A stretch of DNA of 64,000 nucleotides from Escherichia coli (lineage in GTDB: Bacteria > Pseudomonadota > Gammaproteobacteria > Enterobacterales > Enterobacteriaceae): assembly GCF_011045215.1 (NCBI RefSeq), contig NZ_CP049201.1. One strand, written 5' to 3'. A model generated the notes under the pieces. It saw nothing but the letters and a program-made list of their open reading frames with translations, did not search any database and was not told the DNA's origin. Positions 10,391 through 48,566 of this stretch are shown here, one piece after another. A program made the position numbers and the translations under genes. Each line of letters opens with the position of its first letter. Position 1 is the stretch's first letter.

Positions 10391-10699
10391 AAACGATTAT
10401 GTAAATCATTTTATTTTGCCAACGGCCTCATTGTCGAAAGAAAAGAATACGCCCGTGTTTCCTGAATAGATTGACTTTTTTATCCAACCACACTTCAGCG
10501 CACTGCGTTTAAAAAATGCCTCATTCTTATGCGGAATATCATCATTTCATCATGATGTCTTTGATGAGCGGTGAACACAATACACTTGCGCTGTCTCTTC
10601 AGGATGAATCCCCTGGTCTGGTGCCTGTGGGCTGATGTTGCAGCAAAGCTAAGGTCGCTTAAACGCTACTCAGTATTCACTTTTCAGAGGATGAAATTT

Positions 10700-16111: not shown

Positions 16112-17464
16112 TTATGGGTTTAACTCAAACTGTTCCCCGTTTATTAATTTTCGCAATAAGTCAAGTGCCTCAGATGAGTATTTTCCGACACCACTTTTCC
16201 CAGATTTAATGAAAACATGATAATTGTTGTCTGATGCTTTAATGTTGAAGTCGGTTAGTTTTCTTAATTTTTCGAATTCTTGATTAACATAGTGCCACGA
16301 TCCCATGTCGAGAATCCTTGCCAGATCAGACATTGTATATGGGAAACTAGCATTTAGTGCCTGCCCATTATTGAGTTCAGCGATACCATACATTTTTGCT
16401 AATGCATCATCATGCTCTGCAATATTGCGGAACATCTCAAAATCGTATGGAAGTTCTTGTTTAACAAGGGATTCTGATGCGAATGTGTACGTTCTGGCTA
16501 GAAATGCACGCACAAGTTTTGGATTAACGCTAATTTCCGGTGTATTAGATGATAACGCATCAAAAATCCAACCAAAATTATTTGCGTATATCACCTTGAT
16601 TCGAACGCTTTTATTCTCACCAACACCGATTAGCAATTCCTTTTGATGAGAACCAGTGGCCTCGCAGTCCTTACTGAAGGAGACAAGATAAATATTTGGA
16701 ATCAATGCATTATTGGGAGCGATGATTTCATCTATATCAGAGAGAATTGCCTTTATGTTTTCATCATTGATACTGTACCCAAAGAAAAACAAGGGGTGTT
16801 CAGCAAAATATGTTAGCAACTTAGCACTGATATATTTCTTACGTTTATAGAAATCAACATAATCTTCATTTGTAATAACAATACTTTCAACTTCATGACT
16901 GCTACCATGAATTTTCATGATTTCGCCATAAGATGAATAATTCACTTTAACAACGTTATGACCAACTATTGCCTGATAATTGTCAAATATTTTTTCTAAT
17001 GTGTCGTCATAATTTGTTGTGATTATTGCATGAGGTTTTACTTTCCTTAATTTCTGAACTTCCTCTGTATATTCCATGTTCGAGAAATCAACGGAGTTTG
17101 ATAATTCATTCAGAATGGATGCAATTTCATGCTTAATATAAATATCTTTTGGAGTCGTTCCTTCAAAGTATGTCTCTGGATAGCGATCCTTGCCATCATC
17201 CCAAGCCCATTCAGCATAGAAGTCACAAAAATCGCTAGCAATCAAAGGTTTGTTATCACCCTTTGTTTGGCTGTAGTAACCATAAGGGCGTTTGATCAAG
17301 GGGCATATTTCCGCTAGTTGCTTTAATAGACCTTCCCAGTCAGGCGCTTTTATATATCGTTGTGAAATACCTGCACCCATGAATAAAATGGGTTGGACTT
17401 GTAAGTTTTCAAGGCAAGATTTAACATCTTCGATTATTTCTTCTTGATATTCCGTAAAGTCCAT
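16112..17464 (-). CDS. Stand-alone SIR2-family (ThsA-type SIR2_2-like) protein with unknown C-terminal domain; candidate NAD+-depleting anti-phage effector
   Basis: 450-aa AT-rich ORF; sirtuin-like motifs ILFMGAGIS (GAGxS), ITTNYD, KIHGSSHE (HG) and FFFGYSINDENI line up with ThsA SIR2-domain motifs as I recall them; no partner gene within ~0.7-0.9 kb. Confidence 0.7.
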   Translation of the reverse strand: MDFTEYQEEIIEDVKSCLENLQVQPILFMGAGISQRYIKAPDWEGLLKQLAEICPLIKRPYGYYSQTKGDNKPLIASDFCDFYAEWAWDDGKDRYPETYFEGTTPKDIYIKHEIASILNELSNSVDFSNMEYTEEVQKLRKVKPHAIITTNYDDTLEKIFDNYQAIVGHNVVKVNYSSYGEIMKIHGSSHEVESIVITNEDYVDFYKRKKYISAKLLTYFAEHPLFFFGYSINDENIKAILSDIDEIIAPNNALIPNIYLVSFSKDCEATGSHQKELLIGVGENKSVRIKVIYANNFGWIFDALSSNTPEISVNPKLVRAFLARTYTFASESLVKQELPYDFEMFRNIAEHDDALAKMYGIAELNNGQALNASFPYTMSDLARILDMGSWHYVNQEFEKLRKLTDFNIKASDNNYHVFIKSGKSGVGKYSSEALDLLRKLINGEQFELNP

Positions 17465-18352: not shown

Positions 18353-19357
18353 TCACAATCTTCCGCCGTTTTTGACTGTTGCAGATATACTTTTAGCAGG
18401 TTTTAAATGCCTGGAGATTTCTTTCTGTTCTCGACGGATTTTGTATGAATTAATTTCTTCATAATCCTTGTGTTTATTTATTTTTGATAAATCAACCAAG
18501 AGATTATTTCTTATCATCCACTTTACAATTCGCTTGTTGATATCTTTATAGAGAGGGCCGCCTTTATATTTATAGAAGTGAATATCATGAATTTCACTGA
18601 TGAAATCAAGTATGGATAAGATTTCTTTATAATCACCAATGTAACTGTTAATGGTGAAATGGTCTTTATTAAGTTCTATTTTGAATCCATGTTCAGAAAG
18701 GTAATACAAGAAAAAGGCTGAGTCGAGATCACAAAAATCTACATGCAGCGTTCTTCTGTCAAATTTATCAATATGCGAGAGAATGATATCATGTAATTCA
18801 TAATCATATACATTTTCAATAAATCCTTTCCCTGAATGATCAATTTGATTGACATTGCATCCAGCATCTATTGCTACGGATAAAACTTCCGGGGAAAGGG
18901 GCATGAAGAGAATATTCATTCCTTTTTTATCGATGTGATTTATATCACAACCAGCATTAATTAATTCTGTCAATCCTTCAGCATTCCTGTAATGTTCAAA
19001 AATGCATGTGTAGCCATTAGTATCCGTATGCGAGGTGTCTAAACCCAGTTCAATCAGTTTCTTCAGTATTTCTGGATTTTTTTGATGAAAGAGCGCATTT
19101 TGCCCATGTCCGTTGATATGGTGTATATTAATTCCATAACTGAGCAGGCAATCCATGGCTTCCAGGGTTCTGCAGGCAAAAATGGCATTGTTGCCGTTAC
19201 TGTTAACAGCATTGATGTCATAGCCTATTTTTAAAGCTTTCTTTATATCATCAGGTGATCTTGCATTGAAGAATGATTCAGAAATGGCAAGGTCTAATGC
19301 CTTTTCTAATAATCCCTTTTGTAATAAGGATATGACTAATTCCATAAACACCCCCAT
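18353..19357 (-). CDS. Ankyrin-repeat protein (paralog 1)
   Basis: 334-aa ORF with repeated G.DIN..D..G.N.LF blocks (~33-aa periodicity) and a C-terminal region shared with ORF 31629-32573 (..VKWMIRNNL../..IKWFIRNDI..). Confidence 0.7.
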   Translation of the reverse strand: MGVFMELVISLLQKGLLEKALDLAISESFFNARSPDDIKKALKIGYDINAVNSNGNNAIFACRTLEAMDCLLSYGINIHHINGHGQNALFHQKNPEILKKLIELGLDTSHTDTNGYTCIFEHYRNAEGLTELINAGCDINHIDKKGMNILFMPLSPEVLSVAIDAGCNVNQIDHSGKGFIENVYDYELHDIILSHIDKFDRRTLHVDFCDLDSAFFLYYLSEHGFKIELNKDHFTINSYIGDYKEILSILDFISEIHDIHFYKYKGGPLYKDINKRIVKWMIRNNLLVDLSKINKHKDYEEINSYKIRREQKEISRHLKPAKSISATVKNGGRL

Positions 19358-20102: not shown

Positions 20103-20957
20103 TTGAAAAACTGGTCACCAGAGCATACTAAAGAAATCAAAGCTTGGCTTGACATAGATAACTATCGCAAGCTCGAAGACATCAGTTTAAATGCCTTGTA
20201 TCACGAACTTTGGGCAAGAGCACTTCTGTACAAGCCTGGGCCTACTGACGAAGAAAAGAAAGGGCTATGGGTGTACATGACTGAAATTTTCAGTGGGAAC
20301 CCCCATCTTTTCAAAGGGAAGCATCTCGATTATCCAACAGTTAACGATACTCTCTACAGTCCTCCACACATTTTTATCACGGATATCACCAGGCTTGCTG
20401 AACTTAGTGTGATGGCTCTTAGTGTGAATCTTTTCACCTGGGAGGAAGGAAACGATGAATATTGTGTTAATGCGCCTCATCACGAAGCTTATGTGTCACA
20501 ACTCTTGTCCCCCTTATGTGAGAAAACGGTGTTGCTTGAAATCGATCTTGGTAGTGGTACTGACGATGAAATAGCCGAATCGATAAAAGCGGCCCTGCCA
20601 CAATGGAGATCGGTAAAAGGAGTGGAAGTTAATGAAACCGGTATCGTTCGTTTCGGCTATGGAACCATTAAAAAAATTATAAATTACAGGTTGGTTGCGA
20701 TGCTGGACATCTTACTTTGGGCAAAAAGGAAAGAACTAAGAATCTCAGATGATCGCCTCTCCCGGCTTCTTTATACTGATGAAGATGAAGAAACAACTAC
20801 CCGTTTAGGGTATCACATTAAAGACTCAGATCGTCCGCTTGCGATGAAAGCTGCAACGATAGACTTCATTAGGCAGTTCAATTTTTTCATGAACCGAAAT
20901 CCCCACCTGAAAAACATGAGAGTTTCAGATGTGATGAAACTCTCTGATTCTAACTGA
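20103..20957 (+). CDS. Hypothetical protein (284 aa), upstream of alpA-like gene
   Basis: Long ORF; position before an AlpA-like gene suggests an integrative-element module; no motif recognised. Confidence 0.55.
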   Translation: MKNWSPEHTKEIKAWLDIDNYRKLEDISLNALYHELWARALLYKPGPTDEEKKGLWVYMTEIFSGNPHLFKGKHLDYPTVNDTLYSPPHIFITDITRLAELSVMALSVNLFTWEEGNDEYCVNAPHHEAYVSQLLSPLCEKTVLLEIDLGSGTDDEIAESIKAALPQWRSVKGVEVNETGIVRFGYGTIKKIINYRLVAMLDILLWAKRKELRISDDRLSRLLYTDEDEETTTRLGYHIKDSDRPLAMKAATIDFIRQFNFFMNRNPHLKNMRVSDVMKLSDSN

Positions 20958-22878: not shown

Positions 22879-23341
22879 AATGGCTCCTTTTTTATTATTG
22901 TGATAACAGATATGGCATATTAAATTTGTTTGTCAATATTATTAGTAATAAAAATTTTAAAATATTATATTTATTGCTCTGTGATTATTTTTTTAGTGAA
23001 ATATTAAGGGTTGTCAGAGTTATTACGAAGGGTGCTAAATTTCACCATCACCCGTTATGTCATTAATAATTTTTGGTTCTGAAAGATACAACCAATATTC
23101 TATCTTAACTTGTTGATGTAATTGATTAATTTTCTTTTTGTATTTGCAAGATAAAAGAGTGATAAAGAAACAAGAAACCGAAATTTAGCTTTAGACTGAC
23201 ACAAAATTCCATTGTACACAGTTTGATAAACACTGCTATTGCTGATTTTCCTTCGTAATATTATTCCTTAAGTGAAGCCTGCGCACCTGTATGTTGCGCC
23301 ACTGGGCTTCAGAACATTGCTATAGTGTTTAACTGTCAGTA

Positions 23342-23439
23342 GAAATACGCTTCGCGCAGGAGTTCAGACAGTTGGGTTTAGCTCTCAGCACAAATACGCT
23401 TCGCGCAGAGATTCAGACTGCTGAGTTTAGCGAAAGAGT
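23342..23439. repeat. Two tandem ~49-bp direct repeats (AAATACGCTTCGCGCAG.AG.TTCAGAC.G.TG.GTTTAGC)
   Basis: Read directly: 23342-23390 and 23391-23439 are near-identical; followed by nested inverted repeats (GGCTCACGCCGG at 23475-23486 vs GGCGTGAGCC near 23618-23630). Confidence 0.7.
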
Positions 23440-24151
23440 GGACCCGACTACATGATTTACCCGTTAACTTAATACGGCTCACGCCGGAACCCCTTCGGAA
23501 AAATCCTTTCTGCTTCAGCGAGTGAGTGCTGTGGGCACTCAGCGGCGCTGCAAGAGGGATTAAACGTTGGGTTTTCATCTGACGGGTAAAAATAATCTAC
23601 ATATATCTGTCGTCGGGGGCGTGAGCCGGTGCGTAGCACTCTCTCAGAAAAATTCCTGAAGGGGTTTTATCTGAAATCTGGAAACTACCTGGCTTTTGAA
23701 AAAAGGAAGTGGTAATGCAATCGATCGGACTCAACATTGCAACAGCGTAAGCTGTTTCCAGTATTAAAAGAATAAATAGTTGTCATTTTAAAATAAAATA
23801 TTTTCAATTTTGTATTGATTTAAATTTTAAAGCTGATAGTACTTAATTATAAAAACAAAAAAGGAGAGGGTTATGAGTAATATTTTTGTTTCTTCTCAGG
23901 AAGAAAAGTTTATATTTGTTGTTGATAAATATATAACACAGCATCGCGACAGTGTTAATAACAATATTTTTTACAGAAAACTTTATGTGCTTTTCGCTGG
24001 ATACCATCTGAAGTATTTTTATTCACGGGCGCAATATCGCAATTCGTGTTATTGCGTATTCCGCTCTATTCGATCACGGATTGGCATCGAAGTTCGATCA
24101 GCGATTCGCATCCATTCGATCAACCGGGAACTTAACTTTTTCTACCGCTTT

Positions 24152-24907: not shown

Positions 24908-24923
24908 ACGGTTGTTCCTTCTG

Positions 24924-26489
24924 TCAGTGGTAGTAGCCAGGACCACGCAGGTTTTCATGCTCTGAAGCATATGCCGGATGTTGTTCGCCCTGGCGGGATA
25001 ACGGAAGCTCAACGTTATCCCGATGATGACGCAGCAGATTGTCGATAAAGCGTCTGTCCGGGGCGTTATAGTGCAGGGCAACGTAACAGGCCTTTTCCAG
25101 CCGTTCCGGGCCGTATTTTTTCTGAAGTGCCAGCAGACCCAGGACTGCACGGTAAGCCAGCTCCGGATGGGGTTTGGCTTTCAGCATGGATTCAACCACC
25201 CGGCCTGTGGACGGACCTGTACGGTTTCCCTGCTCGATAAGGCGTTCCGGTGTCCATGTCCCATGCCGCCGGTGGCGTTCTGGCATGTGAAGCGGATTGG
25301 TTGTGTGTTTATATTCATGTGTGCTGCGCGGATGTTGCGCCACACACTGCCCCTTGTGCCAGAGCTGTACCACCGACTGCCCCACCTTCAGTGACAGACG
25401 CTGACCGACCAGTTCGTGTGGAACGGAGTACCAGTGACGGGCATATTCAACGTGGTAGTCAGGGCCAACCTTCACGGCTTTGTATTCCGTGTATTCATAA
25501 GGCTCCAGAGGCAGCGGAGAGAGTGCTGGTGCATCCAGCATGCGGAAGCGTTCTGCGCGGGTTTGATTACCGTATCCCTTCATTGGTCGGTTATTCATGT
25601 CCGTCAGCAACTCCCGAAGGCGTGCATTCAGCGCCCTGAGCGTGTGGAAGGTTTCATTACGGATGCGGGCAAGAAGCCATCGCTCGACGATGAGGACGCC
25701 GTTTTCTGCTTTTGGTTTATCTTTAGGTTTGCGCGGGCGGGCCGGGATAATAACCGTGCCATAGTGCTCAGCCAGCGCCTGATAACTGTCGTTGATGACA
25801 GGCTCATAGCGATCGGCTTTTTTCACTGCGCTTCTGAGGTTATCGGGGATGAGCAGCTTCGGTACGCCGCCCAGGAAGGTCAGGCAACGGCTGTGGGCAT
25901 TTAACCATGACATCATGTCCTGACCTTCGCACGCTTCAACATAGGTATAGTTGGACGCCCCCATTACAGCCACGAAGATTGCCACGCGGCGTATCTCTCC
26001 GGTGTCCGGATTAATAACAGGGACCGTAGGACCACAGAAGTCGATAAAGAGCTTTTCGCCAGCACGATGCTCCTGTCGCATGGAGAGGCGTCGCGTTTTT
26101 TTCCACTTCCGGTAGCAACGGCAGAAGTGTGAGTATCCCATCGCTTTGTCACCCGCCTGTGCCTTGTATTCCATCCACAACAGTTGGCGCGTCACGCCAG
26201 GTTTTCTCATTTCCGTATCGAAGTACAGCATGTCAGGCATAACAAGCTCTGACGCAGAGGTGTCTTTGGGCGGGAAAATGAGTTTCTCCAGCGTGTCATG
26301 GGATATATCAGCAGGTAATGGCCATGACAGAGAAGAGGCTTTGAAGCGGGCAAGAACCTCAAAAACGGTTGAGGCGCTGATGTGTAACGTCAGTCCGATA
26401 CAACGGTTAGTCAGCTTCTTATCGAACTTGAGCTGAAGGATCTTAAAACAAGTTTCCATAGTGCTCCTGGATTTTCTCTTTTTGGACAT
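24924..26489 (-). CDS. istA: IS21-family transposase IstA
   Basis: ORF 24924-26591; likely start MSKKRKS (26489); N-terminal HTH followed by integrase-like catalytic core; paired with istB. Confidence 0.8.
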   Translation of the reverse strand: MSKKRKSRSTMETCFKILQLKFDKKLTNRCIGLTLHISASTVFEVLARFKASSLSWPLPADISHDTLEKLIFPPKDTSASELVMPDMLYFDTEMRKPGVTRQLLWMEYKAQAGDKAMGYSHFCRCYRKWKKTRRLSMRQEHRAGEKLFIDFCGPTVPVINPDTGEIRRVAIFVAVMGASNYTYVEACEGQDMMSWLNAHSRCLTFLGGVPKLLIPDNLRSAVKKADRYEPVINDSYQALAEHYGTVIIPARPRKPKDKPKAENGVLIVERWLLARIRNETFHTLRALNARLRELLTDMNNRPMKGYGNQTRAERFRMLDAPALSPLPLEPYEYTEYKAVKVGPDYHVEYARHWYSVPHELVGQRLSLKVGQSVVQLWHKGQCVAQHPRSTHEYKHTTNPLHMPERHRRHGTWTPERLIEQGNRTGPSTGRVVESMLKAKPHPELAYRAVLGLLALQKKYGPERLEKACYVALHYNAPDRRFIDNLLRHHRDNVELPLSRQGEQHPAYASEHENLRGPGYYH

Positions 26490-26625
26490 TGACGTCTCCA
26501 CTGGTTTAAACACGGCAATGGAGACTGTGGTGAAAAGAGTTAATTCCCGGAGTGACTGGCGAATTCCAATCAATGATCGGAAGTATGCCAAATCGTGATC
26601 GATTGTGATGCCAACATATCCTTAC

Positions 26626-28100
26626 CCATAAATCCGAGTGATGTTATTCTGTTGATAAATTAACCATAATTTAGAGGAACTATGGAAAACTGGGTTATTA
26701 AGGAGCTGGAATCTCTGAATGTTGGTGATATCAGGCTCGAAAAGCGAATAAAGCACGTTCTCAGTGTGCTTAGCCGTTCACCAAAGGAAAGTATTCCCGT
26801 ATCCTGCCGTACCTGGAGTGAGACAAAAGCTGCTTATCGTTGCTTTTCCAGTGATAAAATTTCAGCCGATAAAATCATGGCTCCCCATAAGAAAAATATC
26901 ATCGAAAGGACTAAACAGTTTAAACGGGCTCTGGTTTTACAGGATACGACTGAACTAAATTATTCTGGTCAAAAAAAGAAACAGGGCGTCGGTCCCAGAC
27001 GACATGAAAATGAGCGAGATTTGTTTATTCACCCTCAATTGGTTATAAGTGATTCAGGTATTTGCTTAGGGGTTTATGATGATTATCAATGGTTCAGAAA
27101 AGAACTCAAAACTCAGAAACAAAGTCGTAAAGAAATAACTAATGATTCACTTCACAGGAAACATATCAGTGAGAAAGAAACAGGACGGTGGATAGAAGGA
27201 TATAAAAAAGCAACAGAACTGGCTAGGTCCTGTCCTGATACCCAGATAATTTCTGTTTCAGACCGTGAAGGTGATATTTACGACCTCTTTGAGAGTGCAG
27301 AAAATGAAAGTGGGATAAAGGCTGACTGGCTCGTAAGAATGAAGAGCATTAACCGGGCTATACTGAATTCATCAGGAAAAAGAGACTCATTACTCCTGAA
27401 TGAAAAAATGATGCAGATTTTGCCACAGCAGATAATTGAGTTTACCCTTCCGGAAGGACGAGGACAACCTTCCCGCAAAGTCCAGCAGGAGCTACGCTTA
27501 GCAAGGTTGACGCTACATCCACCCACCGGTCGAAGAGGAAAGTTACGTTGTTCTCCGGTAACGGTAACTGTATTACTTGCAAAGGAAATAAATGCTCCAG
27601 AAAGTGTCCAGCCATTAGTATGGTGGCTAATGAGTAGTGTACCTCCAGAAAAGCTGACGGAACCCGCACAGCTTATTCAATGGTATTTATTACGCTGGCA
27701 GATTGAAGTTTTCTTTAAGGTATTAAAAAGCGGATGTCAGGTTGAGAAATTACAACTTGAGACATTTGAACGCACAAGGAACTGTCTGGCCTTATACCTT
27801 ATAATCTCATGGAGAATACTTTATCTTAGCTCATTGTATAAAATGGTTCCGGAGGAACCCTGTGATTTAATTTTCGAAAAGAAAGAATATGAGTATCTCT
27901 GGATATTGGTAGAGAATACGCCTCCACCTGAAAACATACCGAATATAAGAACGGCGGTTTTAATGCTTGCAAGATTAGGAGGATATCTGGCAAGAAAAAA
28001 TGATTCGCCTCCAGGCCCTAAGACTATATGGTCAGGATTAACACAATTAATGCTGTCAATTAATGCCATAGAAATAGCCCAGAAAACTTGTGGGTAAGGG
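26626..28100 (+). mobile_element. IS4-family insertion sequence nested in the IS21-family left end
   Basis: Single transposase ORF flanked by imperfect terminal inverted repeats (CCTTACCCATAA... / ...TTGTGGGTAAGG); both flanks carry IS21-type repeat motifs; boundaries approximate. Confidence 0.6.
26682..28097 (+). CDS. IS4-family DDE transposase
   Basis: 471-aa ORF containing the IS4 Y-x2-R-x3-E-x6-K signature (YLLRWQIEVFFKVLK). Confidence 0.85.
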   Translation: MENWVIKELESLNVGDIRLEKRIKHVLSVLSRSPKESIPVSCRTWSETKAAYRCFSSDKISADKIMAPHKKNIIERTKQFKRALVLQDTTELNYSGQKKKQGVGPRRHENERDLFIHPQLVISDSGICLGVYDDYQWFRKELKTQKQSRKEITNDSLHRKHISEKETGRWIEGYKKATELARSCPDTQIISVSDREGDIYDLFESAENESGIKADWLVRMKSINRAILNSSGKRDSLLLNEKMMQILPQQIIEFTLPEGRGQPSRKVQQELRLARLTLHPPTGRRGKLRCSPVTVTVLLAKEINAPESVQPLVWWLMSSVPPEKLTEPAQLIQWYLLRWQIEVFFKVLKSGCQVEKLQLETFERTRNCLALYLIISWRILYLSSLYKMVPEEPCDLIFEKKEYEYLWILVENTPPPENIPNIRTAVLMLARLGGYLARKNDSPPGPKTIWSGLTQLMLSINAIEIAQKTCG

Positions 28101-29820: not shown

Positions 29821-31050
29821 TTATGGTGCAGGATAGGGGTTATTTTTAACTAATTGTTCTTTAATGGGATTTGTTGTCATGGAATGACAGGGTGTCAGAA
29901 GATGCAGGTGCAGGATTTGGTGGAAAGGATGTGCAGTGGCATGTAACAGAGACATGCCCCTGCGCCTGAGAAGTGCCACAATATGGCCGAGCAATACAAA
30001 CCACGAATGCAGACGACGCTGGCGGGGTATCTGACGAGCTGTATTGTGCAGTTTGCTCCTGAGTTGAATGACACCCACTGTTTCCTGTTGTCTTTCCAGA
30101 CGAATTTTTTCTTCAAGCTGAAGGATTTTCTCCAGAATCGTTTCCCGGTTTGCAGCCTGTTCTTCAGGCTCGCATGATGGCACTGGCACTGGCACTGGCA
30201 CTGGCACTGGCACTGGCACTGGCACTGGCACAGTCTGCTGTTGCTCTTTTTTCAGTAAAGCCAGGTGCTCTGGTGTAAAATCAATCTGTGTTTGCAGAGA
30301 AGACCAGCCATACTTTTTTCCAAGCTGAGACGCTTTAAAGGCAATGCCCTGGTACTGAAATGAAAAGCCGTTCATTTTTCCCGTTGAGGCGATATTAGGT
30401 TTACAGTTCACGCCTTCCTTTTCCAGCATAGTGATAAAAGTCAGCAAATCAGGGCGGCCGGTTAACGCATTATCAATCAGGCTCTGCAGAGTGGACCTGG
30501 GGCAGGGAGTTGTCGTTCTTTCAGCCATCATCAGCTCGTTGCGGGAAGGCTTTCTTTTCTCCTGACTATGACTACTGATTGCAGATGTGGTTTGAGTGAG
30601 TTTGTGGACTTTCTCCAGCTCGCTGATAATCCGGGTACTGATAAGATTTTCATTTTTCCCAAGGTACAGCTTCCCACCGACCATGTTAATTCTGTTAGCT
30701 ATTATATGGATATGCTGCCCGTCCGAATCATCGTGCATGATATAGCAGCGAAGATGGGTTTCAGTGAATCCCATCCGGGTCATATAATCGTCAGCGAATG
30801 CCGCCCATTGTCTGACTGACAGTGTTTCTCCCTTTGGCAGGCGAAGCGAATTATGCCAGACAGGTTTGGCGACACCGGGGCGCAGTAGTCTTGTGCCTTC
30901 AAATTCACTGATAAGTTCAGCAGCAGTGCTTCCCGTCATGTTGCCACCGATAATATAAGGCGTGATTTTGTGGTGAGATCCTGACTTAAGGCTATAGAGA
31001 ACAACACCTGCGAACTGTTTACCCCGCTTTATTTTCTGCATACCTTTCAT
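29821..31050 (-). CDS. Mobilization relaxase (MobA/MobL-like) with internal (VP)n linker; C-terminal tail of doubtful authenticity
   Basis: Three-histidine relaxase-type motif HDDSDGQHIHIIANR; start overlaps the mobC-like stop (ATGA at 31047-31050); low-complexity tail after the VP repeat. Confidence 0.65.
   Translation of the reverse strand: MKGMQKIKRGKQFAGVVLYSLKSGSHHKITPYIIGGNMTGSTAAELISEFEGTRLLRPGVAKPVWHNSLRLPKGETLSVRQWAAFADDYMTRMGFTETHLRCYIMHDDSDGQHIHIIANRINMVGGKLYLGKNENLISTRIISELEKVHKLTQTTSAISSHSQEKRKPSRNELMMAERTTTPCPRSTLQSLIDNALTGRPDLLTFITMLEKEGVNCKPNIASTGKMNGFSFQYQGIAFKASQLGKKYGWSSLQTQIDFTPEHLALLKKEQQQTVPVPVPVPVPVPVPVPVPSCEPEEQAANRETILEKILQLEEKIRLERQQETVGVIQLRSKLHNTARQIPRQRRLHSWFVLLGHIVALLRRRGMSLLHATAHPFHQILHLHLLTPCHSMTTNPIKEQLVKNNPYPAP
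30178..30231. repeat. Perfect hexanucleotide tandem repeat (TGGCAC)x9 inside the relaxase gene
   Basis: Read directly; encodes a run of 8-9 Val-Pro dipeptides on the minus strand. Confidence 0.95.
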
Positions 31051-31451
31051 TGAGTTGGCTCCAGAAAGGTTGATGGAATAAGGTGATCCCTGAGAGTTTT
31101 GATTTGTCTGCGCAGGGCGAAGAGTTCTGTACGGGTCAGTTCGCTGTCAGGGCTTTTGCTGTCGAGATGATTCAGCAGGCGGTTTAAATGCTGTGAAAGG
31201 TTGCCGAGTTTAATCCATGCTTCACGATTGATTTCAGGTAATACCGGTGGGAGTTTGTTGAGGGATGCCATTCTTAGCCATTCCCCTTTTTTATAAGGGC
31301 CTCTTTTACTATCGAGAATAGATAATTCTTCTTCGTTTAACCGAACGCTGACGCAGTGAGTTCGAACTTCATTAGGTGAATATTTTGCTGTATGGAATTT
31401 ACCTCTTCTTGAGCGTCTTGATAGATCTTCTTTACTTTCATTTTTATGCAT
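31047..31451 (-). CDS. MobC-like relaxosome accessory protein
   Basis: 134-aa basic protein immediately upstream of and overlapping the relaxase gene; typical mobC-mobA arrangement. Confidence 0.5.
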   Translation of the reverse strand: MHKNESKEDLSRRSRRGKFHTAKYSPNEVRTHCVSVRLNEEELSILDSKRGPYKKGEWLRMASLNKLPPVLPEINREAWIKLGNLSQHLNRLLNHLDSKSPDSELTRTELFALRRQIKTLRDHLIPSTFLEPTQ

Positions 31452-31628
31452 ATCTAACCTTTTTTAAAATGTGTTCATGATCTACAGTTAGCGCATTGGT
31501 AAAATAAGTCAAGGCAGTGTCGAAATTTATAAATAAGATAGGTGGAGCAGATTGCTAATTAGGTAATCTGCTCTGGGTAAAAATAGGGTTCATATTAAAT
31601 TCATTATGACAGTGAGGAGGGGCGGAGG

Positions 31629-32573
31629 TTACAATCTACGTTTTACTGGCATTAAAGAGATTGTTTGTTTCATAATTTCGCTAAGTTTCTTTTTCTCATG
31701 TTCTGCTATATATTTACAAATCTCATCATGTCGAATATGCTGTTCCAGTTGTTTTTTATCCATTTTGATGTCATTGCGGATAAACCATTTAATGGTTTCA
31801 ATGTCCCCGCGTAAATCATAACCTCGCAGTACAATATGGCGAAAATGTGTGTTGCTGATATCTGTCTTCTTCTTTAGTTCACTGAAGAAAGAGCTCATTT
31901 CATTTTCATTGGCACTTAGATAAACCTGGCAGTTATCAGAGATAGTAAAGTTAAGGTTTTTCTTCTGAAGCAAATCCATTATCTGCAGACTTTCGCTGTT
32001 GAGGTAGTTGAAAATTACTGGACTGCTATCCTTCATACTAATATGACGAATGAGCATTTTGGCTTTGAAATCGCCTAATGAATAGCAAATTTCAAAAATA
32101 CCGTGACCCTGGTTATCTCTGTGGTTTATATCGCAACCGGCCTGTACCATCAAATCAAAGATAGAGTGATTTTTTACGTAAAAAAGTATTGTTCTTCCGC
32201 ATTTATCCACATTGTTGACATTAATTCCAGCATTGATCAGGGTTTTGCAACAGGATATATTATCAGCTAACGAGCATAAACAGGTTTGGCCGAGACCATT
32301 TTTATGGTGTATATCTACGCCGGAATCAATCAATTTTTTCAGTATGTGAGGATTTCGCTGGTTAAACAAAACATTGTGACCATAGTTGTCAGCATGGTTA
32401 AAATCTATTCCTGCTTTAACCAGAGTGTCAATCATTCTTGGGTTTTTACAGTAAAACAGTATATTTCTTCCAAACGAATCCAGTGTATTAATATCGGAGC
32501 CTGCATTAATGCAAGCCTGAATGTCTTTTGGAGTTTTACAAGAGAGTAATGTATTTATTGCGTTGTTATTCAT
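31629..32573 (-). CDS. Ankyrin-repeat protein (paralog 2)
   Basis: 314-aa ORF with ankyrin-like repeats (GSDINTLDSFGRNILFY..., GIDFNHADNYGHNVLF...) and the shared C-terminal region; 16 bp downstream of ORF 32589-33029. Confidence 0.7.
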   Translation of the reverse strand: MNNNAINTLLSCKTPKDIQACINAGSDINTLDSFGRNILFYCKNPRMIDTLVKAGIDFNHADNYGHNVLFNQRNPHILKKLIDSGVDIHHKNGLGQTCLCSLADNISCCKTLINAGINVNNVDKCGRTILFYVKNHSIFDLMVQAGCDINHRDNQGHGIFEICYSLGDFKAKMLIRHISMKDSSPVIFNYLNSESLQIMDLLQKKNLNFTISDNCQVYLSANENEMSSFFSELKKKTDISNTHFRHIVLRGYDLRGDIETIKWFIRNDIKMDKKQLEQHIRHDEICKYIAEHEKKKLSEIMKQTISLMPVKRRL

Positions 32574-32588
32574 AATTTTTCTCCTCTG

Positions 32589-33029
32589 TTAAGCGACTAA
32601 TCTGATATAGTTGTCATGGTTGGTTTTATATTCCTTTATTTTTTTAATGTCTTCGTAAATTCGAGCGAGTGAAAACCATGAGATCTCTTTCAACATGTTT
32701 TTGTTGCTTACATACAAAATGTTACCACCGCGAAATGAAAAAGCATTATGGAATGTACTTTCATTCGTCGTTTTGAGAAATCGAATGAAATTTTTTATTG
32801 TCTCTTTTTTGTTCATGTTATAAGAGGTGAATGTATAGATAGAGAATACGGTTAAAATATTTCTCTTCGAGACCATATGTCTTGAGAAATAATCGAAATA
32901 AAATCTTTGCTCCTGAGTGTCACTTTTGCAGAAAAAAGAAAATTGTGGATTATATAATCTATAAAGATCTGCGTTCTTTTTTGTTTTGGCGAGATAGTTA
33001 GTCAGGCTTGGATATTTTGTTTTATTCAT
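32589..33029 (-). CDS. Hypothetical protein (146 aa), probably co-transcribed with ankyrin paralog 2
   Basis: ORF ends 16 bp upstream of the ankyrin gene start on the same strand; no recognised domain. Confidence 0.45.
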   Translation of the reverse strand: MNKTKYPSLTNYLAKTKKNADLYRLYNPQFSFFCKSDTQEQRFYFDYFSRHMVSKRNILTVFSIYTFTSYNMNKKETIKNFIRFLKTTNESTFHNAFSFRGGNILYVSNKNMLKEISWFSLARIYEDIKKIKEYKTNHDNYIRLVA

Positions 33030-33389
33030 TTTAGTTCTCCTTTATTTAATTAACAAAGGAAATATATATTATTAAATAAACAAAATGCAAATATATTTTT
33101 ATATTTATTTAATTAAATAGTTATATTTTTATTATATTTCATATAAGGTGTTGTTTTTCATTGTTATTTTATTTTTATCAAAAAGTGCTGTGTTTTATTT
33201 GATTGATTTGGTTTGAGAGTAGTGATTGATATAGTATGAATTGGCGATGAGGGTGTTTTAAAAAATAAATTTATCAAAGTGCAAAGGTGCAATGTGGGGC
33301 TTTGTATTAAATTAATGATGTTAGCGCCCCTTGGCTATCTAACTAAAGGTTAAAGCCAAGGGGAGAGTGTTCAGGCAGATTCAATTCAT

Positions 33390-34371
33390 AATCTTTTTTT
33401 TGTAATTGCTTTACAGGTAACTGGTTGAAGCGTTGTTCGTAAAACCTTTTGCTCTCTCTGTAATTTGTCCTGGAGGATTTCTTCATAAAAGTAGCGTTCT
33501 TTTAGCGATTCTATATCAACTTTTATATCATTACGTATTAACCATTTAATTAGCAGTCTTCCTGCATAGTGCGTCAGTAGATATGTACTGCTTATGTAAA
33601 ACCAAACATGACTAATGTCTGTCAGCTTCTTTAGTTGTAAAATTAATTTTTTAGCGTCGGCATTTGTTGGTGTTATGATACATTTATCACTTATCTCAAA
33701 TTCATTTTTTGTTTTATAAGCAATGACAACAGCTCAATTGATTTAAATGTAATGTTCTTGAGTACAATTTTTGAACTATTTGTAAGGTGAATATTACGGA
33801 TAAAAAAGCGCATGTAGTTATCATTTTTAGATTCCCAGTGCGTATATTTACCAACTATGCTATTATTTTCTGACTGCCAGTGATCGAATGCTGTCTGTCC
33901 ACTTATATTTTTATGATTAATGTCGCAACCAGCCTCAATTAGTGCATCGTACACATATCCTTCAAATGGAATGAAAAGAAAGGAATTGCCATATCTATCT
34001 TTGGTATGGATATCTAGTCCTGCTTTGATAAGATATTTTACTAACCCTGGTGAAACATCAATATGTTGAATCGCAAGGGTGCCTGACTTATTCCGGTGGT
34101 TAACATTAATACCATTGCTGACAAGAAGTTCCACTGTTTCAACATTTTGAGCATAGAATAATGCATTATTACCGTCATTATCCAAGTGGTGAATGTCAAT
34201 GTCAGCGTCAATCATTGCCTGTATAGCTTCAGGTACATTACAGGTAAAAAGAGCAGTTTGACCTTTACTATTGCACATATTTATATCCATGCCAGCCTTA
34301 AGGCAACGAAGGACACCATTTTTAGACTTTACACGGAATAGGTTATTTTTATTATTTTCTCTTGATATCAT
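33390..34371 (-). pseudogene. Ankyrin-repeat paralog 3, frameshifted at a homopolymer tract
   Basis: 226-aa ORF stops at 33691-33693; the paralog-consistent C-terminal region (...KNEFEISDKCIITPTNADAKK...LLIKWLIRNDIKVD...) continues in another frame; shift maps to the T6 tract at 33705-33710; 3' end approximate. Confidence 0.55.
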
Positions 34372-34890
34372 TGTTTATCTCCTTTTTTGTTGTTTTCAAG
34401 ATATTAATGACACCAGATTTTACGGTATTCAAATTTATTTTTGTTTTATTAGGGGGTATCTGATTTGGTTTGCTTAAGGTTATTCTTAACTTAATGGAAC
34501 ATAGGGACTTTAAGGTTATCCTATGTGATGTGGATTAACCATTTTCACAAGAATATTTATCCATATTGGAGCTAATCTGTATAAAGGAGATAATTAGAGG
34601 CTCAGATATTAATACTATAGAGAGTAATGCTATAGGATATGGAAAAGATCATGTAATATAATGGTGGTTATTAATGTTCATCTTAATTTTGGAAATTAAA
34701 TGAGTAGTGTTTTTTATGAGGTTTTTTGCTGTTGATAATTCTTATTAAAATTTGAAGAGCATCCTTTAAGTTATTCGGCTTGAGGATGCTCATTTAAAAT
34801 TTAAGCAGCGTAGTCTTTTTCAACAGCCAGGAAGGGGTGATGCTGCCAACTTACTGATTTAGTGTATGATGGTGTTTTTGAGGTGCTCCA

Positions 34891-35133
34891 GTGGCTTCTG
34901 TTTATATCAGCTGTCCCTCCTGTTCAGCTACTGACGGGATGGTGCGTAACGGTAAAAGTACTGCCGGACATCAGCGCTATCTCTGCTCTCACTGCCGTAA
35001 AACATGGCAACTGCAGTTCACTTACACCGCTTCTCAACCCGGTACGCACCAGAAAATCATTGATGTGGCCATGAATGGCGTTGGCCTCAACACGATTTTA
35101 CGTCACTTAAAAAACTCAGGCCGCAGTCGGTAA
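34891..35133 (+). CDS. insA: IS1 InsA (deletion variant, 80 aa)
   Basis: [80 protein letters not shown]. Confidence 0.85.
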
Positions 35134-35177
35134 CCTCGCGCATATAGCCGGGCAGTGACATCATCGTCTGCGCGGAA

Positions 35178-35555
35178 ATGGACGAACAGTGGGGCTACGT
35201 CGGGGCTAAATCGCGGCAGCGCTGGCTGTTTTACGCGTATGACAGGCTCTGGAAGACGGTTGTTGCGCACGTATTCGGTGAACGCACTATAGCGACGCTG
35301 GAGCGTCTTATGAGCCTGCTGTCACCCTTTGACGTGGTGATATGGATGACGGATGGCTGGCCGCTGTATGAATCCCGCCTGAAGGGAAAGCTGCATGTAA
35401 TCAGCAAGCGATATACGCAGCGAATTGAGCGGCATAACCTGAATCTGAGGCAGCATCTGGCACGGCTGGGACGGAAGTCGCTGTCGTTCTCAAAATCGGT
35501 GGAGCTGCATGACAAAGTAATCGGGCATTATCTGAACATAAAACACTATCAATAA
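35178..35555 (+). CDS. insB: IS1 InsB segment (expressed as InsAB' by -1 frameshift)
   Basis: [22 protein letters not shown]...[15 protein letters not shown] matches the IS1 InsB C-terminal region. Confidence 0.85.
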
Positions 35556-35600: not shown

Positions 35601-38600
35601 TCATTTTCCTAATTCTCCAGCTAAAAGTTCAGCCTGCTTCAAAACAGTCTCTGTGGCGAGCAATGACATATCAGGCGGATAACCATATTTTTTGAGCAGA
35701 CGTTTTACCACCACGCGAATTTTTGCTCTTGCTGCTTCTTTCACTGTCCAGTCAAGACTGACATTGTTGCGGATAGCCTCCGTAAGTACGACTGCCAGTT
35801 CTCGTAGTTTTTCCTTTTCCATTAACTCGCGAGCACTGTCGTTATCTGCAACAGCAGAATAGAAGGCATATTCATAAGCGCTGAGGTTTAACTGGCTGGC
35901 AAGGCTGTCAGATTCCTGGATAGTCTTGGCAAGCTTGATTAGCTCATCAATTACCTCCGCTGCTGTCAGTACCTTGTTCTGGTAGCCATTGATTGCAGAG
36001 GTCAGCATATCAATCAGTTTTTTGCCTTGGGTGATACTTTGATTCGAGCGAACTTTAATCTCGTCAGAAAGCAGTTTTTTAAGCGTTTCCAAAGCAATAT
36101 TTCTGTGTTGGTAATCCTTCATTTCCTGAAGGAATTCTTCAGAAAGAACGGAAATATCTGGCTTTTGTATCCCAGCAGCGTCAAAAATATCAACAACTTT
36201 ATCGGTAACCAGAGCCTGATCGATAGTCTGTTTTACCCGAACTTCCAGACTGTCATTGTGTTCTTCTTCTGATCCGTCTGAGTTTTCAGTAAATTTATTC
36301 AGTCTGGCTTTTACTGCCTGGAAGAATGCTACTTCGGGTGCCGCTTCCATTGCTTTATCGTGCGGTGTCGCCAATGCAAATGCCTGCGACAAGGCTGCAA
36401 CCGCAGCCAGGAAACGCATTTTACCTTTACCGTTATCCAGCCCTAAAATATGGTTTTCTGATTCAAGAATAATTGTCAGGCGTTGTGAAGTAGTTGCGGC
36501 AAAGTAAGCTTTGTAATCGTAGCCATGCATCATGCCTTCCAGGATTTCCAGCTTTTCCTGCATGAGCGTTACAGCTTCTTCCTGAACCTCAGCAGGATCT
36601 CCACGTCCACCTGCATCAGAGTAAAAGGAGAGGGCTTCTTTTAAATCAGAGGCAATGCCCAGATAGTCAACAACCAGACCGCCTATCTTATCTTTATACA
36701 CACGGTTCACACGGGCAATTGCCTGCATGAGGTTGTGGCCTTTCATTGGTTTGTCGATATACAGCGTATGCATGCTGGGAGCGTCGAAGCCGGTTAACCA
36801 CATATCACGCACTATCACCAGTTTCAGCTTGTCGTCGTCATCCTTCATACGATTAGCCAGAACCTGACGTTCTTTTTTTGTGGTGTGGTGTTTAGCGATT
36901 TCTGGTCCGTCAGCAGCAGAAGAGGTCATGACGACTTTAATCACGCCATCATTTAGATTATCGCTGTGCCATTCAGGTTTTAACTCTATGATTTCTTTAT
37001 AAAGTTCAGCAGCAATACGACGGGACATGGTGACAATCATGCCCTTGCCATGATCGGCATTAGATTTTAAGCGCTGTTCAAAGTGCTGAACCATATCCGC
37101 CGCAATAGCTTTAATACGTTTTGAACTGCCAATCAAACCTTCGATTCTGGCCCATTTAGACCGTTCTTTCTGGGTAAGCGTCAGCTCGTCTTCGTTAAAC
37201 TCATCGTCGAAGTCTTCAATTAGCTGGCGACCTTCGTCACTGATGGCAATTTTGGCAAGACGGCTTTCATAGAAGATACGCACGGTTGCACCGTCTTCTA
37301 CGGCCTGTGAGATATCGTAGATATCAACGTAGTTACCAAAAACAGCAGGTGTGTTTACGTCCGTTTTTTCTATGGGGGTTCCGGTAAAGCCAAGATAGGT
37401 AGCATTGGGCAAGGCATCACGCATATATTTGGCAAAGCCGTAAACGGTGCGTTTACCTGTTACGTTGCCTTCGCTGTCTTTCACGTCAACTTCTTTGGCG
37501 CTGAAACCGTATTGTGAACGGTGGGCTTCATCAGCGATAACGACAATATTGGTTCTGTCTGACAACAACTCATAGATATTGCTGCCATCATTAGGCTGGA
37601 ATTTTTGAATAGTGGTAAACACCACACCACCAGAGGCTACGCGCAAATATTCTTTGAGTTCTTCCCGGTTGTCGGCCTGTTTTGGTGTCTGACGAAGTAG
37701 CTAGGTCGCGGAAGAGAACGTACCGAATAGCTGATCATCCAAATCGTTACGGTCAGTAATCACAACAACTGTCGGATTATCCAGCGCCAGCACAATTTTC
37801 CCGGTATAAAACACCATCGAAAGCGATTTACCGGAACCCTGAGTATGCCAGACTACGCCCGCTTTGCGATCTCCGGTTTTTTGCGCATTAACAAGATCTT
37901 TACTGTTACGTCCCTGCTGGCGCAGTGCCACTTCGGCAGAGGGGGAGTCCGCATTCACCGCTGAGGCACGAATAGTGGAAAGAACTGCTGCATTGACCGC
38001 GTAGTACTGGTGATAAGCCGCCATTTTTTTAACAGTACGGATACTGATAATCCCTTTGCTGTCTTCATGTTTGCTGGCCTCAAACACGATAAAGTGGCGG
38101 ATCATATCCAGCAGCGTTACAGGATTAAGCAACCCCTGTAATAAAACTTCAAGCTGTGGTTGGGTACTGGTGGCTTGCGTTTTACCGTTAGCAGTTTTCC
38201 ACGTCATATAACGACTGAAATCGGCAGAAACCGTCCCCGCTTTGGCTTCCAGCCCGTCAGATATCACATTAAAAGCATTGTAGTTAAACAGACCGGGGAT
38301 TTGGTTCTGATAGGTTTTAATCTGATTATAGGCACCTGTTACCGTAGCATTTTCGTCAGCGGCATTTTTAAGTTCGATAACGACTAATGGCAGGCCGTTG
38401 ATGAATAAAATAAGATCAGGTCGGCGGGTATGATTGCCTTCTTTGATGGTGAGCTGATTAATGACCAGAAATTCATTATTAGTGGGATCGTTAAAGTCGA
38501 TCAGGCAGGCCAGCTCTCCTTGTGTATTACCATCCTTACTGACTTCGATATTGATCCCTTCGGTCAACAGGCGATGAAAGGCCAGATTGTTTGCCATTAG

Positions 38601-38840
38601 ATCAGGTGTGCTGATCTGCATCACCTGTTTCAGGGCTTCCTCACACTTCTGTTCACTAAGGTGCGGATTCAGGCGTTGTAGAGCAATACGCACCTTATCT
38701 TCAAGGATAACCTGCTGATAGCTACGTAACGGATTGATTCCACTGGGTTCAATGTCCGGGCCGTAAACATACTCATAGCCCAGCCCTTGCAGGTGCTCAA
38801 TTGCCATTACTTCAATATCGGATTCGGTCATCTTTGCCAT
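35601..38840 (-). pseudogene. hsdR: Type I restriction enzyme R subunit HsdR interrupted by an in-frame amber codon
   Basis: ORFs 37701-38840 (N-terminal, helicase motif I GSGKS) and 35601-37646 (C-terminal) are in the same frame, separated by a single TAG at 37701-37703 (...[33 protein letters not shown]...). Confidence 0.8.
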
Positions 38841-46807: not shown

Positions 46808-48037
46808 TTATGCGGCAATAACTTTGCATTTTTGAGACGAAACATAGTCACTCCACCATTGCATGAGAACCACCCGTTCAGTGAGATACTCTGCACGATT
46901 GTAGGCTGCAATTATTTCATCTTTCTTCGAGTGGGCAAGGGCGGCTTCTAAGACATCAGTCCTAAACTTGCCAGACTCCTCAGCAGCCGTTCTAGCAATG
47001 GATCGCATACCGTGAGCTACAAGCTCACCTCCGAAACCCATACGGATTATGGCCGCATTAGCTGTTTGTTCATGCATGTGATTGAGTGGAGCTTTGATAC
47101 TGGGGAACACCCACTCTCTATGCCCGCTGATGACTTTCATTAAATCCAAAACTCGCAAAGCTTCTTTGCTCAGTGGAACTTTGTGAGGCTTCTTCATTTT
47201 CATAAACTCCGCCGGGATGTTCCACATGCCAGTTTCAATATCAATATCTGACCATCTTGTGCGAACAGCTTCACCTGGGCGAACCCATGTGAGAAGTTGC
47301 CACTCAATCAGTAGCCTTGTTTCCAAACGGATAGAAGCATTGTTTAGAGCAACCAAGAAGCGAGGGAGTTCGGAAGGGGGTAATGCTGGCATATTCTGTT
47401 TTTTTGGCTTGCTGAACCGTTGCCCCAGGTTGTCTGCCGGGTTGAATTCTATGAGTTCTTCTGTTGCTGCATAGCGGAAAATTTCATTCAGGCGGGATAT
47501 GATGCGGCGAAGTGTTTCAAGGACACCTCGTTTTTCTATGGGTTCTAAATGCTGTTTAAGCATTTTAGGGCGAATCTCCTTAATTGGGGTATCACCCAAT
47601 GTGGAAAAGATATTTCTCTCTAGGCTTCGCCAGATGTCGTTAGCATGATCTTGGGAGATGCCTGACGTTTTGACTTTCTCATCAAGCCACTTCTTGGCTA
47701 CTGCTTGAAATGTATGTTCCGTGGCATCTTTCAGTGCATTGGCTTTTTGGTTGTTATGAACTTGGGGGTCTATACCATTTGTAAGCAACGACAAGTATTC
47801 ATCACGTAAAGCTCGTGCCTTCGCAAGTGTAAGGTGAGGATAGGTTCCTAAGCTCACCTTAGTTCGCTTTTTGGTCACAGGCACTGCATATCTGAAATAC
47901 CAATTTTTCTTCCCTCCCTTCGCCAGGGGAGCGATTCGCAACAGCAAACCATCGCCGTCAAAAAGGTTAACCTCTTTTTCGGCAGGTTTGGTGCTTTTGA
48001 TTTCAGTGTCAGTGAGCTTCTTAGCGATTTTGGCCAT
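46808..48037 (-). CDS. P4-type tyrosine integrase
   Basis: ORF 46808-48118; likely start MAKIAKKLTDTEIK (48037, ~409 aa); C-terminal catalytic-domain residues (...HGMRSIARTAAEE...); located 166 bp from the ssrA 3' end, same orientation. Confidence 0.85.
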   Translation of the reverse strand: MAKIAKKLTDTEIKSTKPAEKEVNLFDGDGLLLRIAPLAKGGKKNWYFRYAVPVTKKRTKVSLGTYPHLTLAKARALRDEYLSLLTNGIDPQVHNNQKANALKDATEHTFQAVAKKWLDEKVKTSGISQDHANDIWRSLERNIFSTLGDTPIKEIRPKMLKQHLEPIEKRGVLETLRRIISRLNEIFRYAATEELIEFNPADNLGQRFSKPKKQNMPALPPSELPRFLVALNNASIRLETRLLIEWQLLTWVRPGEAVRTRWSDIDIETGMWNIPAEFMKMKKPHKVPLSKEALRVLDLMKVISGHREWVFPSIKAPLNHMHEQTANAAIIRMGFGGELVAHGMRSIARTAAEESGKFRTDVLEAALAHSKKDEIIAAYNRAEYLTERVVLMQWWSDYVSSQKCKVIAA

Positions 48038-48203
48038 GTTTGGGACCCTCGATTTTAGGACCCATCTTCGTGGGTCCCATTCAGGGTGCCATAACTCGTA
48101 GTTCTCAGCAATTCTCACTAGACTACAATAGACGTAAAAAAGCCCGCAGAGCTTGTGCTGTGCGGGCTTAGTAGACTTTACTGAACTTCAGTACATCAAT
48201 ATT

Positions 48204-48566
48204 TGGTGGAGCTGGCGGGAGTTGAACCCGCGTCCGAAATTCCTACATCCTCGGTACTACATGCTTAGTCAGTCTTTACATTCGCTTGCCAGCTGCGGAC
48301 GGACACGCCACTAACAAACTAGCCTGATTAAGTTTTAACGCTTCAACCCCAGGCAGGGCTTCCACGCGATCTCTTTTGGGTTTGACCTCTCTTGATCCCC
48401 GTCCTAAGAGCGGAGGCTAGGGAGAGAGGGCTCTAAGCAGGTTATTAAGCTGCTAAAGCGTAGTTTTCGTCGTTTGCGACTATTTTTTGCGGCTTTTTAC
48501 GAGGCCAACCGCCCCTCGGCATGCACCTTGGGTTTCGCAAATCCCGTCGAATCCAGAATCAGCCCC
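48204..48566 (-). ncRNA. ssrA: tmRNA (SsrA)
   Basis: Reverse complement reads GGGGCTGATTCTGGATTCGACGGGATTTGCGAAACCCAAGGTGCATGCCGAGGGGCGGTTGGCCTCGTAAAAAGCCGCAAAAAATAGTCGCAAACGACGAAAACTACGCTTTAGCAGCTTAA...GCTCCACCA, i.e. E. coli tmRNA including the ANDENYALAA tag-encoding segment; 363 nt. Confidence 0.97.

Follow-up and report, generated by a model that had tools for sequence, protein, structure and literature searches.

Poxviruses encode host-range proteins of the ankyrin/PRANC (F-box-like) type, in which N-terminal repeats are followed by a small family-specific C-terminal module and which are present as several diverged paralogs per genome. In bacteria, ankyrin-repeat effectors of Legionella are substrates of the Dot/Icm system, and ankyrin-repeat immunity proteins exist in polymorphic toxin systems. 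A preprint on Enterobacteriaceae megaplasmids has described many ankyrin-like proteins of unknown role, and the leading region of plasmids has been identified as a hotspot for counterdefense genes (PMC11541004). Here, we describe three ankyrin-repeat genes (par1, par2, and par3) found in a 64,000-nucleotide stretch of an Escherichia coli genome (assembly GCF_011045215.1, contig NZ_CP049201.1), referred to below as the window. The genes are carried by an island inserted at the transfer-messenger RNA (tmRNA) gene ssrA that is an integrative mobilizable element (IME), with an integrase at the tmRNA site, a relaxase and its accessory protein, and no mating-pore genes. Judged from sequence comparison, par1, par2, and par3 belong to a family that is real, narrow, uncharacterized, and restricted to Enterobacterales. 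We tentatively propose that its members work as binders on behalf of the element.

Three ankyrin-repeat paralogs with an orphan C-terminal module

All three genes are located on the minus strand. par1 (18353..19357) codes for a 334-aa protein, with a start codon that RefSeq places 4 codons later than our open reading frame (ORF) call, and par2 (31629..32573) codes for a 314-aa protein. par3 (33386..34371) is a pseudogene here due to a 1-nt deletion, while in other strains it is intact and codes for 328 aa. The ORF listing bore out the original prediction made for this DNA, namely, that the island carries three ankyrin paralogs, which proved to be 29 to 30% identical to each other over their full length. 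Each of them consists of about five degenerate ankyrin repeats, a C-terminal alpha/beta module of ca. 150 aa, and a basic tail. The hidden Markov model (HMM) search suggested for the repeats recovered Ank_2 (E = 4e-8) and Ank_4 (7e-4) in par2, ankyrin repeats being its only Pfam matches, and the family homologs have the precomputed domains PF12796, PF00023, and PF13637. The three proteins are members of the ankyrin-repeat superfamily (Pfam clan Ank). No signal peptide or membrane segment was apparent in the sequences of the ankyrin proteins.

The common non-ankyrin region that had been noticed at the C terminus of the paralogs, with its IKW.IRN. motif, is also real and spans the ca. 150 residues of the module. 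In an alignment of 15 relatives, the motif takes the form (I/V)KW(F/L/M)IRN (a K-W-x-I-R-N core), and the repeats measure about 30 residues, with about five of them in the forms of 290 to 334 aa and three more in a class of 412 aa. The proteins end in K/R-R-L/I in every class but that of 300 aa. The sole invariant polar residue of the module is one Lys, so it lacks a catalytic constellation. A profile of the module matched about 30 cluster representatives among 1.84 billion proteins; 22 of these had E <= 1e-10, and the weakest included two or more spurious repeat proteins. The genuine matches were family members or fragments of them, always with ankyrin repeats as the N-terminal partner. Fusions of the module to non-ankyrin domains were rejected, since the stand-alone matches were fragments or frameshifted copies, and the one at locus L026 (L numbers designate the loci fetched for comparison) is a pseudogene disrupted by an insertion sequence (IS). 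Profile searches of the module against Pfam, NCBIfam, PHROGs, PADLOC, and PDB gave nothing significant, and no relative was found in the AlphaFold database.

The range of the family is narrow. Scanning for the C-terminal motif in one genome for each of ca. 100,000 species retrieved 11 loci, all of them in Enterobacterales, and the hosts of the family are commensal, environmental, and plant-associated members of this order. A phage origin was rejected because none of the INPHARED phages carries the family and a single Wolbachia WO phage showed similarity at the level of the repeats only; the "viral" family matches in IMG/VR correspond to the same mobilizable element and not to phages.

The original prediction had considered that these could be ordinary ArpA/YahD-type proteins in a core-genome context. 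YahD of E. coli K-12 is an ankyrin protein like par2 and aligns to its repeats at 24% identity, a generic repeat similarity, while ArpA of the same strain has no significant similarity to par2 (hhalign probability of 0.1% for the C-terminal module). Both lack the module, and both are core-genome genes in metabolic neighborhoods (the yah and ace loci), unlike the island family, whose context is a mobile island at ssrA. Identity with either protein was therefore rejected.

ORF146 and par2, an operon-like pair of separable genes

ORF146 (32589..33029, minus strand), a conserved gene of the element, codes for a small basic protein (pI 9.85) and precedes par2, which is in turn located directly upstream of the relaxosome operon. 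This 146-aa ORF had been predicted 16 bp upstream of par2 and as the partner of the latter in a two-gene unit. The ORF is present as predicted, with a gap of 15 nt, and not 16, between its stop codon and the par2 start codon, inside which there is a strong AGGAGA ribosome-binding site. This junction (stop, AGGAGA, and ATG within 15 to 17 nt) and the gene order are kept in at least five genera. Between the par2 stop codon and the NikA-like accessory gene there is a perfect inverted repeat of 9 bp (31545..31573, minus strand), a candidate terminator or oriT inverted repeat. The relatives all have a hairpin at the corresponding position past the ankyrin stop codon, although its arms differ in sequence. 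Given the conserved junction and the position-conserved hairpin, ORF146 and par2 look like a two-gene transcript ending before the promoter of the accessory gene, in which par2, the distal gene, would be translated behind ORF146, the proximal one. A strict terminator scan found nothing, and a promoter scan performed no better than on shuffled sequence.

Each gene also occurs alone. ORF146 lacks an ankyrin gene in an E. coli lineage with a different insertion site (L002 to L006), where the accessory gene directly follows it, and ankyrin genes without ORF146 include par1, par3, the pair of 412 and 300 aa found in the islets described below, and the one at L040. The divergence of both genes is discordant as well: between Salmonella and Klebsiella, ORF146 is 90% identical and the ankyrin gene 49%, versus 69 and 65%, respectively, between Klebsiella and Superficieibacter, which indicates that the ankyrin gene has also been replaced independently of ORF146. 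The two-gene unit thus stands as far as the junction and gene order are concerned, but an obligate two-gene system was rejected, as there is no strict cooccurrence and the evolution of the genes is not congruent. As read from these comparisons, ORF146-par2 is an operon-like arrangement of two separable genes, and ORF146 is a backbone gene of the element rather than a dedicated ankyrin partner.

Homologs of ORF146 are confined to Enterobacteriaceae, and profile searches against Pfam, NCBIfam, PHROGs, PADLOC, and PDB yielded no family match. The structure model is helical with a three-stranded sheet, and the protein is predicted to be, probably, nucleic acid binding. In L002 to L006 (5308-7654; an E. 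coli element at the hypF/ygbA site), ORF146 lies beside an AAA_15/AAA_21 ATPase of 496 aa and a 281-aa gene on the opposite strand, which resemble a PARIS-like defense pair, judged by domain content and gene sizes.

Fixed positions of the family in related elements

Mapping the window proteins onto all fetched loci revealed the same element backbone in Klebsiella, Citrobacter, Kluyvera, Pseudocitrobacter, Phytobacter, Superficieibacter, and Salmonella. In the loci of the first six genera, a par2-type gene is always located between ORF146 and the accessory gene, and the order in Salmonella and Klebsiella is ORF146, a 315-aa ankyrin gene, the accessory gene, and the relaxase. The par2 slot holds either a family member or nothing, and never other cargo. 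A par1-type gene (58 to 76% identity) adjoins the DUF6387 gene in three genera (L024, L025, and L029). In Kluyvera cryocrescens and Citrobacter youngae, par3, ORF146, and par2 are 94 to 100% identical to those of the window, with copies at 97 to 100%, which points to recent transfer between genera.

The second context of the family is a minimal islet made up of an integrase of the same, ssrA type (86% identical) and two family members of 412 and 300 aa, with nothing else. It is found in Salmonella, Klebsiella aerogenes, and Superficieibacter (L012, L015 to L017, and L030 and L031), and Rahnella has the 412/300-aa pair without the integrase. The genes of the islet are separated by long AT-rich gaps (1.1 and 0.7 kb), and a further prophage sits directly beside the islet in Salmonella and K. 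aerogenes. At L040, one of the IMG/VR matches, a frameshifted gene of the 412-aa class is directly upstream of the accessory gene and ORF146 is absent.

Among 5,426 complete E. coli genomes, 308 contain some part of the locus; 70 have most of it, and ca. 230 have only a par3 truncated by an IS. Plasmid records contain short ankyrin-only proteins, with similarity at the repeat level, and distant relatives of ORF146 (37 to 43% identity), in the neighborhood of orphan methylases, ArdC-like zincin, toxin-antitoxin, DotA/TraY, and pilin genes. Two of these records, from Klebsiella (NZ_CP083770.1, L020, and NZ_CP083799.1, L021), are linear, ca. 33 kb long, and typed as nonmobilizable. Along with the short ankyrin-only proteins and distant ORF146 homologs, they encode DotA/TraY, type IV pilins, DUF927, ParA, orphan methylases, an ArdC-like zincin, and H-NS, and they may be fragments or unusual elements.

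Selection, exchange, and decay

Pairwise Nei-Gojobori estimates were used for the ratio of nonsynonymous to synonymous substitution (omega) and for synonymous divergence (dS). Omega was 0.15 to 0.29 in all ankyrin classes (0.21 to 0.27 for the par1 type), ca. 0.2 in the relaxase, 0.13 to 0.19 in the mobC-like accessory gene, 0.05 to 0.13 in ORF146, and 0.03 to 0.07 in the integrase. These values indicate that the intact ankyrin genes are functional and constrained, although less so than the integrase. Positive selection was rejected, as omega for whole genes stays under 0.3; values around 1 or higher appeared only between near-identical alleles differing by a handful of substitutions and are not meaningful.

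When the window was compared with its Klebsiella and Citrobacter relatives, the accessory gene and the relaxase gave dS values of 0.4 to 0.7, whereas ORF146 and par2 were saturated (dS > 2). The ORF146-par2 stretch therefore diverged much earlier than the adjacent mobC and relaxase genes and has been exchanged by recombination, which indicates replacement of alleles or cassettes.

Decay of the ankyrin genes is common in chromosomes, as illustrated by the IS truncation in ca. 230 E. coli genomes and by the window, L026, and L040, whose copies are frameshifted or disrupted by an IS. Such frequent decay fits a function that matters more to the mobile element than to the host.

The frameshifted copy of the window is par3. 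The original prediction was right about the frameshift and placed the gene at 33390-34371, 4 nt short of its true end at 33386. Three-frame translation shows an N-terminal ORF (33691-34371) and the remainder in another frame, down to ...KAITKKRL and a stop codon at 33386-33388. The only length difference from the intact 987-nt copy of strain 19AR1724 is one missing A in a run of seven, so that the window has A6 (33705..33710, minus strand) where the alignment and a probe give A7 in intact alleles. The probe, 61 nt long and spanning the run, hit 47 complete E. coli genomes, every one of which has A7 rather than A6. The frameshift is thus private to the window sequence and is probably a mutation of very recent date or else an error in reading the homopolymer. 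Immediately past the par3 stop codon, there is a perfect inverted repeat of 10 bp (33327..33363, minus strand) that resembles a terminator hairpin.

Possible role of the ankyrin proteins

The reading that we favor, with somewhat less than even confidence, is that the ankyrin proteins are binders serving the element in conflict with the host or with rival elements. The original prediction had named effectors, antidefense factors, and components of a defense system as possible roles. In our reading, the proteins would lack enzymatic activity and bind proteins of the host or of rival elements stoichiometrically, as inhibitors or adaptors, to the benefit of the element, with possible uses in counterdefense or in establishment after transfer. 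The surface of the ankyrin repeats would confer target specificity, and differing alleles would be exchanged between elements. The anatomy of the proteins, without catalytic motifs, the distribution of the family, the diverged paralogs at fixed positions, the swapping of alleles, purifying selection, and decay in chromosomes are shown by the comparisons above and fit such binders, while the binder role and its beneficiary are inferred from them.

Several observations weigh against this proposal. par3, ORF146, and par2 are codirectional with and upstream of the relaxase operon, like the genes of plasmid leading regions, but this argument is weak because oriT could not be located. A search by conservation of nick sites and inverted repeats did not place it. 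There are two candidate sites, of which the mobC-side hairpin is not conserved in sequence and may be a terminator, while the other, a noncoding block at 23327..23552, is better conserved and is found on the other side of the relaxase operon. Concerning single-strand promoters of the Frpo/ssi type, the folding of the upstream single-stranded DNA was no more stable than that of shuffled sequence (z from -1.7 to +0.1). The leading-region study (PMC11541004) includes no ankyrin family as established counterdefense, with one 10-member family in its tables, and our literature search found no paper mentioning the proteins by accession, describing the family, or testing its function. Conservation of the C-terminal module does not exceed that of the repeats, which gives no clear support to the picture of a variable sensor joined to a constant docking domain. 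Benefit to the host is suggested by the islets, which are free of mobilization genes and keep intact family members with omega of ca. 0.2 across genera. The island itself carries defense cargo (type I restriction-modification and SIR2), as does the related L002 element with its PARIS-like AAA_15/AAA_21 ATPase pair, recognized by domain content and gene sizes.

These last two points are shared with the alternative that survives best, namely, cargo protecting the host, either as a sensor or component of antiphage defense or as an orphan immunity protein against ankyrin-bound competitor toxins. We regard it as unlikely, though a real possibility. The purifying selection on intact islet copies in several genera and the several diverged paralogs per element, reminiscent of immunity gene arrays, argue for it, as do the company of restriction-modification and SIR2 (PDC-S25, 4e-77) and weak PADLOC matches to the ankyrin part of PDC-M72A and to MzaA. 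However, these matches are limited to generic repeats, and an obligate par1-SIR2 linkage was rejected because SIR2 homologs occur without par1 and the par1-type genes of other genera are beside DUF6387 and not SIR2. No effector domain, membrane segment, or catalytic motif was found in the proteins, no toxin gene is adjacent, and par1, par3, and the 412/300-aa pair have no conserved partner gene. Moreover, the slot upstream of mobC holds this family alone instead of varied defense cargo, and the genes are often lost or truncated in E. coli.

Another proposal, rather unlikely in our view, is that the proteins are a hitherto unrecognized class of IME-encoded factors that neutralize the immunity of the recipient or hijack the machinery of a helper plasmid, perhaps delivered through the basic tail, with the ankyrin alleles as swapped specificity cassettes and ORF146 as a DNA-binding regulator of the operon.

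C-terminal tails with a positive charge are used as signals for type IV secretion. It is conceivable, if improbable, that the ankyrin proteins are transfer factors, acting as adaptors to the coupling protein or secretion system of a helper plasmid or as substrates translocated by means of their basic C-terminal signal, with alleles that track helpers. The K/R-R-L/I ending conserved in all classes but the 300-aa one agrees with this, as do the fixed backbone positions beside the NikA-like/MOBP relaxase operon and the presence of DotA/TraY and type IV pilin genes on the plasmid records from which the short ankyrin proteins and the relatives of ORF146 come. Nevertheless, the similarity to those plasmid proteins is at the generic repeat level, the reasoning is purely by analogy and lacks a known helper plasmid, an element lineage exists that keeps its mobilization genes with an empty ankyrin slot at mobC, and the islets have ankyrin genes and no mobilization genes.

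Finally, we consider it highly improbable that the proteins target eukaryotic cells, in the manner of effectors from Legionella, Coxiella, or the phages of sponge symbionts, in spite of the ankyrin repeats typical of such effectors, the basic tail that might act as a nuclear-localization-like signal, the subthreshold NCBIfam matches to Legionella AnkH and AnkY, and the same reading having been offered in the literature for the ankyrin proteins of Enterobacteriaceae megaplasmids. Against this reading, the genes are accompanied by neither a secretion system nor a signal peptide, their hosts are Enterobacterales that live as commensals, in the environment, or in association with plants, the Legionella matches are far below the cutoff and confined to the repeats, and the context is a mobilization module.

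IMEs are abundant and poorly understood vehicles of gene flow in Enterobacteriaceae, and the ankyrin family is a fixed feature of an element type that has recently moved between E. coli, Citrobacter, and Kluyvera. If its members inhibit host defenses or helper functions, a class of repeat proteins would be added to the counterdefense repertoire, and they would be natural, evolvable binders against bacterial immune proteins; if they protect the host instead, they would be a new stand-alone immunity module. At present, the family is an orphan with well-defined limits and clear comparative genomics, and nothing yet points to an unexpected mechanism.

The island at ssrA

The P4-type tyrosine integrase (46808..48040, minus strand) adjoins ssrA (48204..48566, minus strand), the insertion site of the island. 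Moving away from ssrA, the integrase is followed by a serine recombinase, two ParB genes, a type I restriction-modification system, and IS1, then by par3, ORF146, par2, the accessory gene, and the MOBP relaxase, and lastly by small ORFs, an HTH_36 gene, DUF6387, par1, and the SIR2 protein. No type IV secretion genes were found within the island. The relaxosome accessory gene (31047..31451, minus strand) is weakly NikA-like and has a MobC-like position. The relaxase (29821..31050, minus strand) is of the MOBP type (TraI_MobP match, 3.5e-15) and includes an in-frame (Pro-Val)n repeat; this is a perfect (TGGCAC)n hexanucleotide repeat at 30178-30237, corresponding to (Pro-Val)9, which could vary in length between strains.

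The DUF6387 gene (20103..20957, plus strand) belongs to the backbone and is divergent from par1. On the other side of par1 is the SIR2-family gene (16112..17464, minus strand), a PADLOC candidate (PDC-S25, E = 4e-77) that also matches phrog_2695. Copies of the latter gene that are ca. 75% identical are found elsewhere in E. coli chromosomes without an ankyrin neighbor, and a 170-nt stretch just 5' of it matched ca. 400 E. coli plasmids at 82% identity. The noncoding block mentioned above (23327..23552, minus strand), which lies upstream of HTH_36, is GC rich, with hairpins and two 49-nt tandem repeats, and may be the oriT of the element, a replication origin, or a regulatory site. Its conservation exceeds that of the neighboring coding genes, even in the most distant lineage (L002), and it matched no Rfam family and no plasmid.

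The copy of the island in the window is decaying. IS21 (istA/istB, 24152-26591), an IS4-family element (26682-28097), and IS1 (34862-35555) interrupt its backbone, the first two being missing in strain 19AR1724, whose island is otherwise almost identical. In hsdR (35601-38840, minus strand), codon 380 has changed from CAG to TAG (37701-37703), a single-base difference from 19AR1724. Because of this stop codon, restriction is probably inactive, while hsdM and hsdS are intact. A search of the window for a second copy of the ssrA 3' end, as the distal att repeat, gave none, so this copy of the island may be immobile. The distal flank contains a tRNA-Met-like gene (7588-7663), a gene of the YpjC/B family (8415-9764), and a YpjA-like autotransporter of the Ag43/AIDA type with 1,620 aa (10571-15433). 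The same distal genes flank the CP4-57 prophage in K-12, so the island occupies the CP4-57 site.

Comparison with known systems

In PADLOC-DB v2, the ankyrin proteins matched no system beyond the repeats, and ORF146 had no match. PDC-M72 (protein A) and MzaA gave HMM matches over the ankyrin repeats (E = 7e-11 to 1.5e-4), but the likeness is restricted to this region, and the partner genes of these multigene candidates are absent from the neighborhood. AnkH and AnkY of Legionella share with our family the ankyrin repeats and a possible C-terminal export signal. They differ in their C-terminal part, which is unrelated, and in the scores obtained (40.8 and 27.9 bits against a curated cutoff of 600), and no Dot/Icm system is linked to the island genes.

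The establishment and counterdefense genes in the leading regions of conjugative plasmids (ArdA, ArdC, PsiB, and anti-CRISPRs; Samuel et al. 2024, PMC11541004) are similar in being upstream of and codirectional with the relaxase operon and in coding for small to medium cytoplasmic proteins without enzymatic motifs and with diversified alleles. Related gene pools are also found on plasmids among orphan methylases and ArdC-like genes. However, the family has no sequence or fold relation to known counterdefense proteins, and its island is an IME and not a plasmid, without single-strand promoter structure.

By architecture, the closest analogue would be the ankyrin/PRANC proteins of poxviruses, with no homology detected. 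No similarity of the C-terminal module to F-box/PRANC was found, bacteria are devoid of cullin machinery, and in the window family, the module is no better conserved than the repeats. Set beside all of these systems, the family consists of accessory ankyrin-repeat proteins that are encoded by a mobile element and whose C-terminal module is an orphan.

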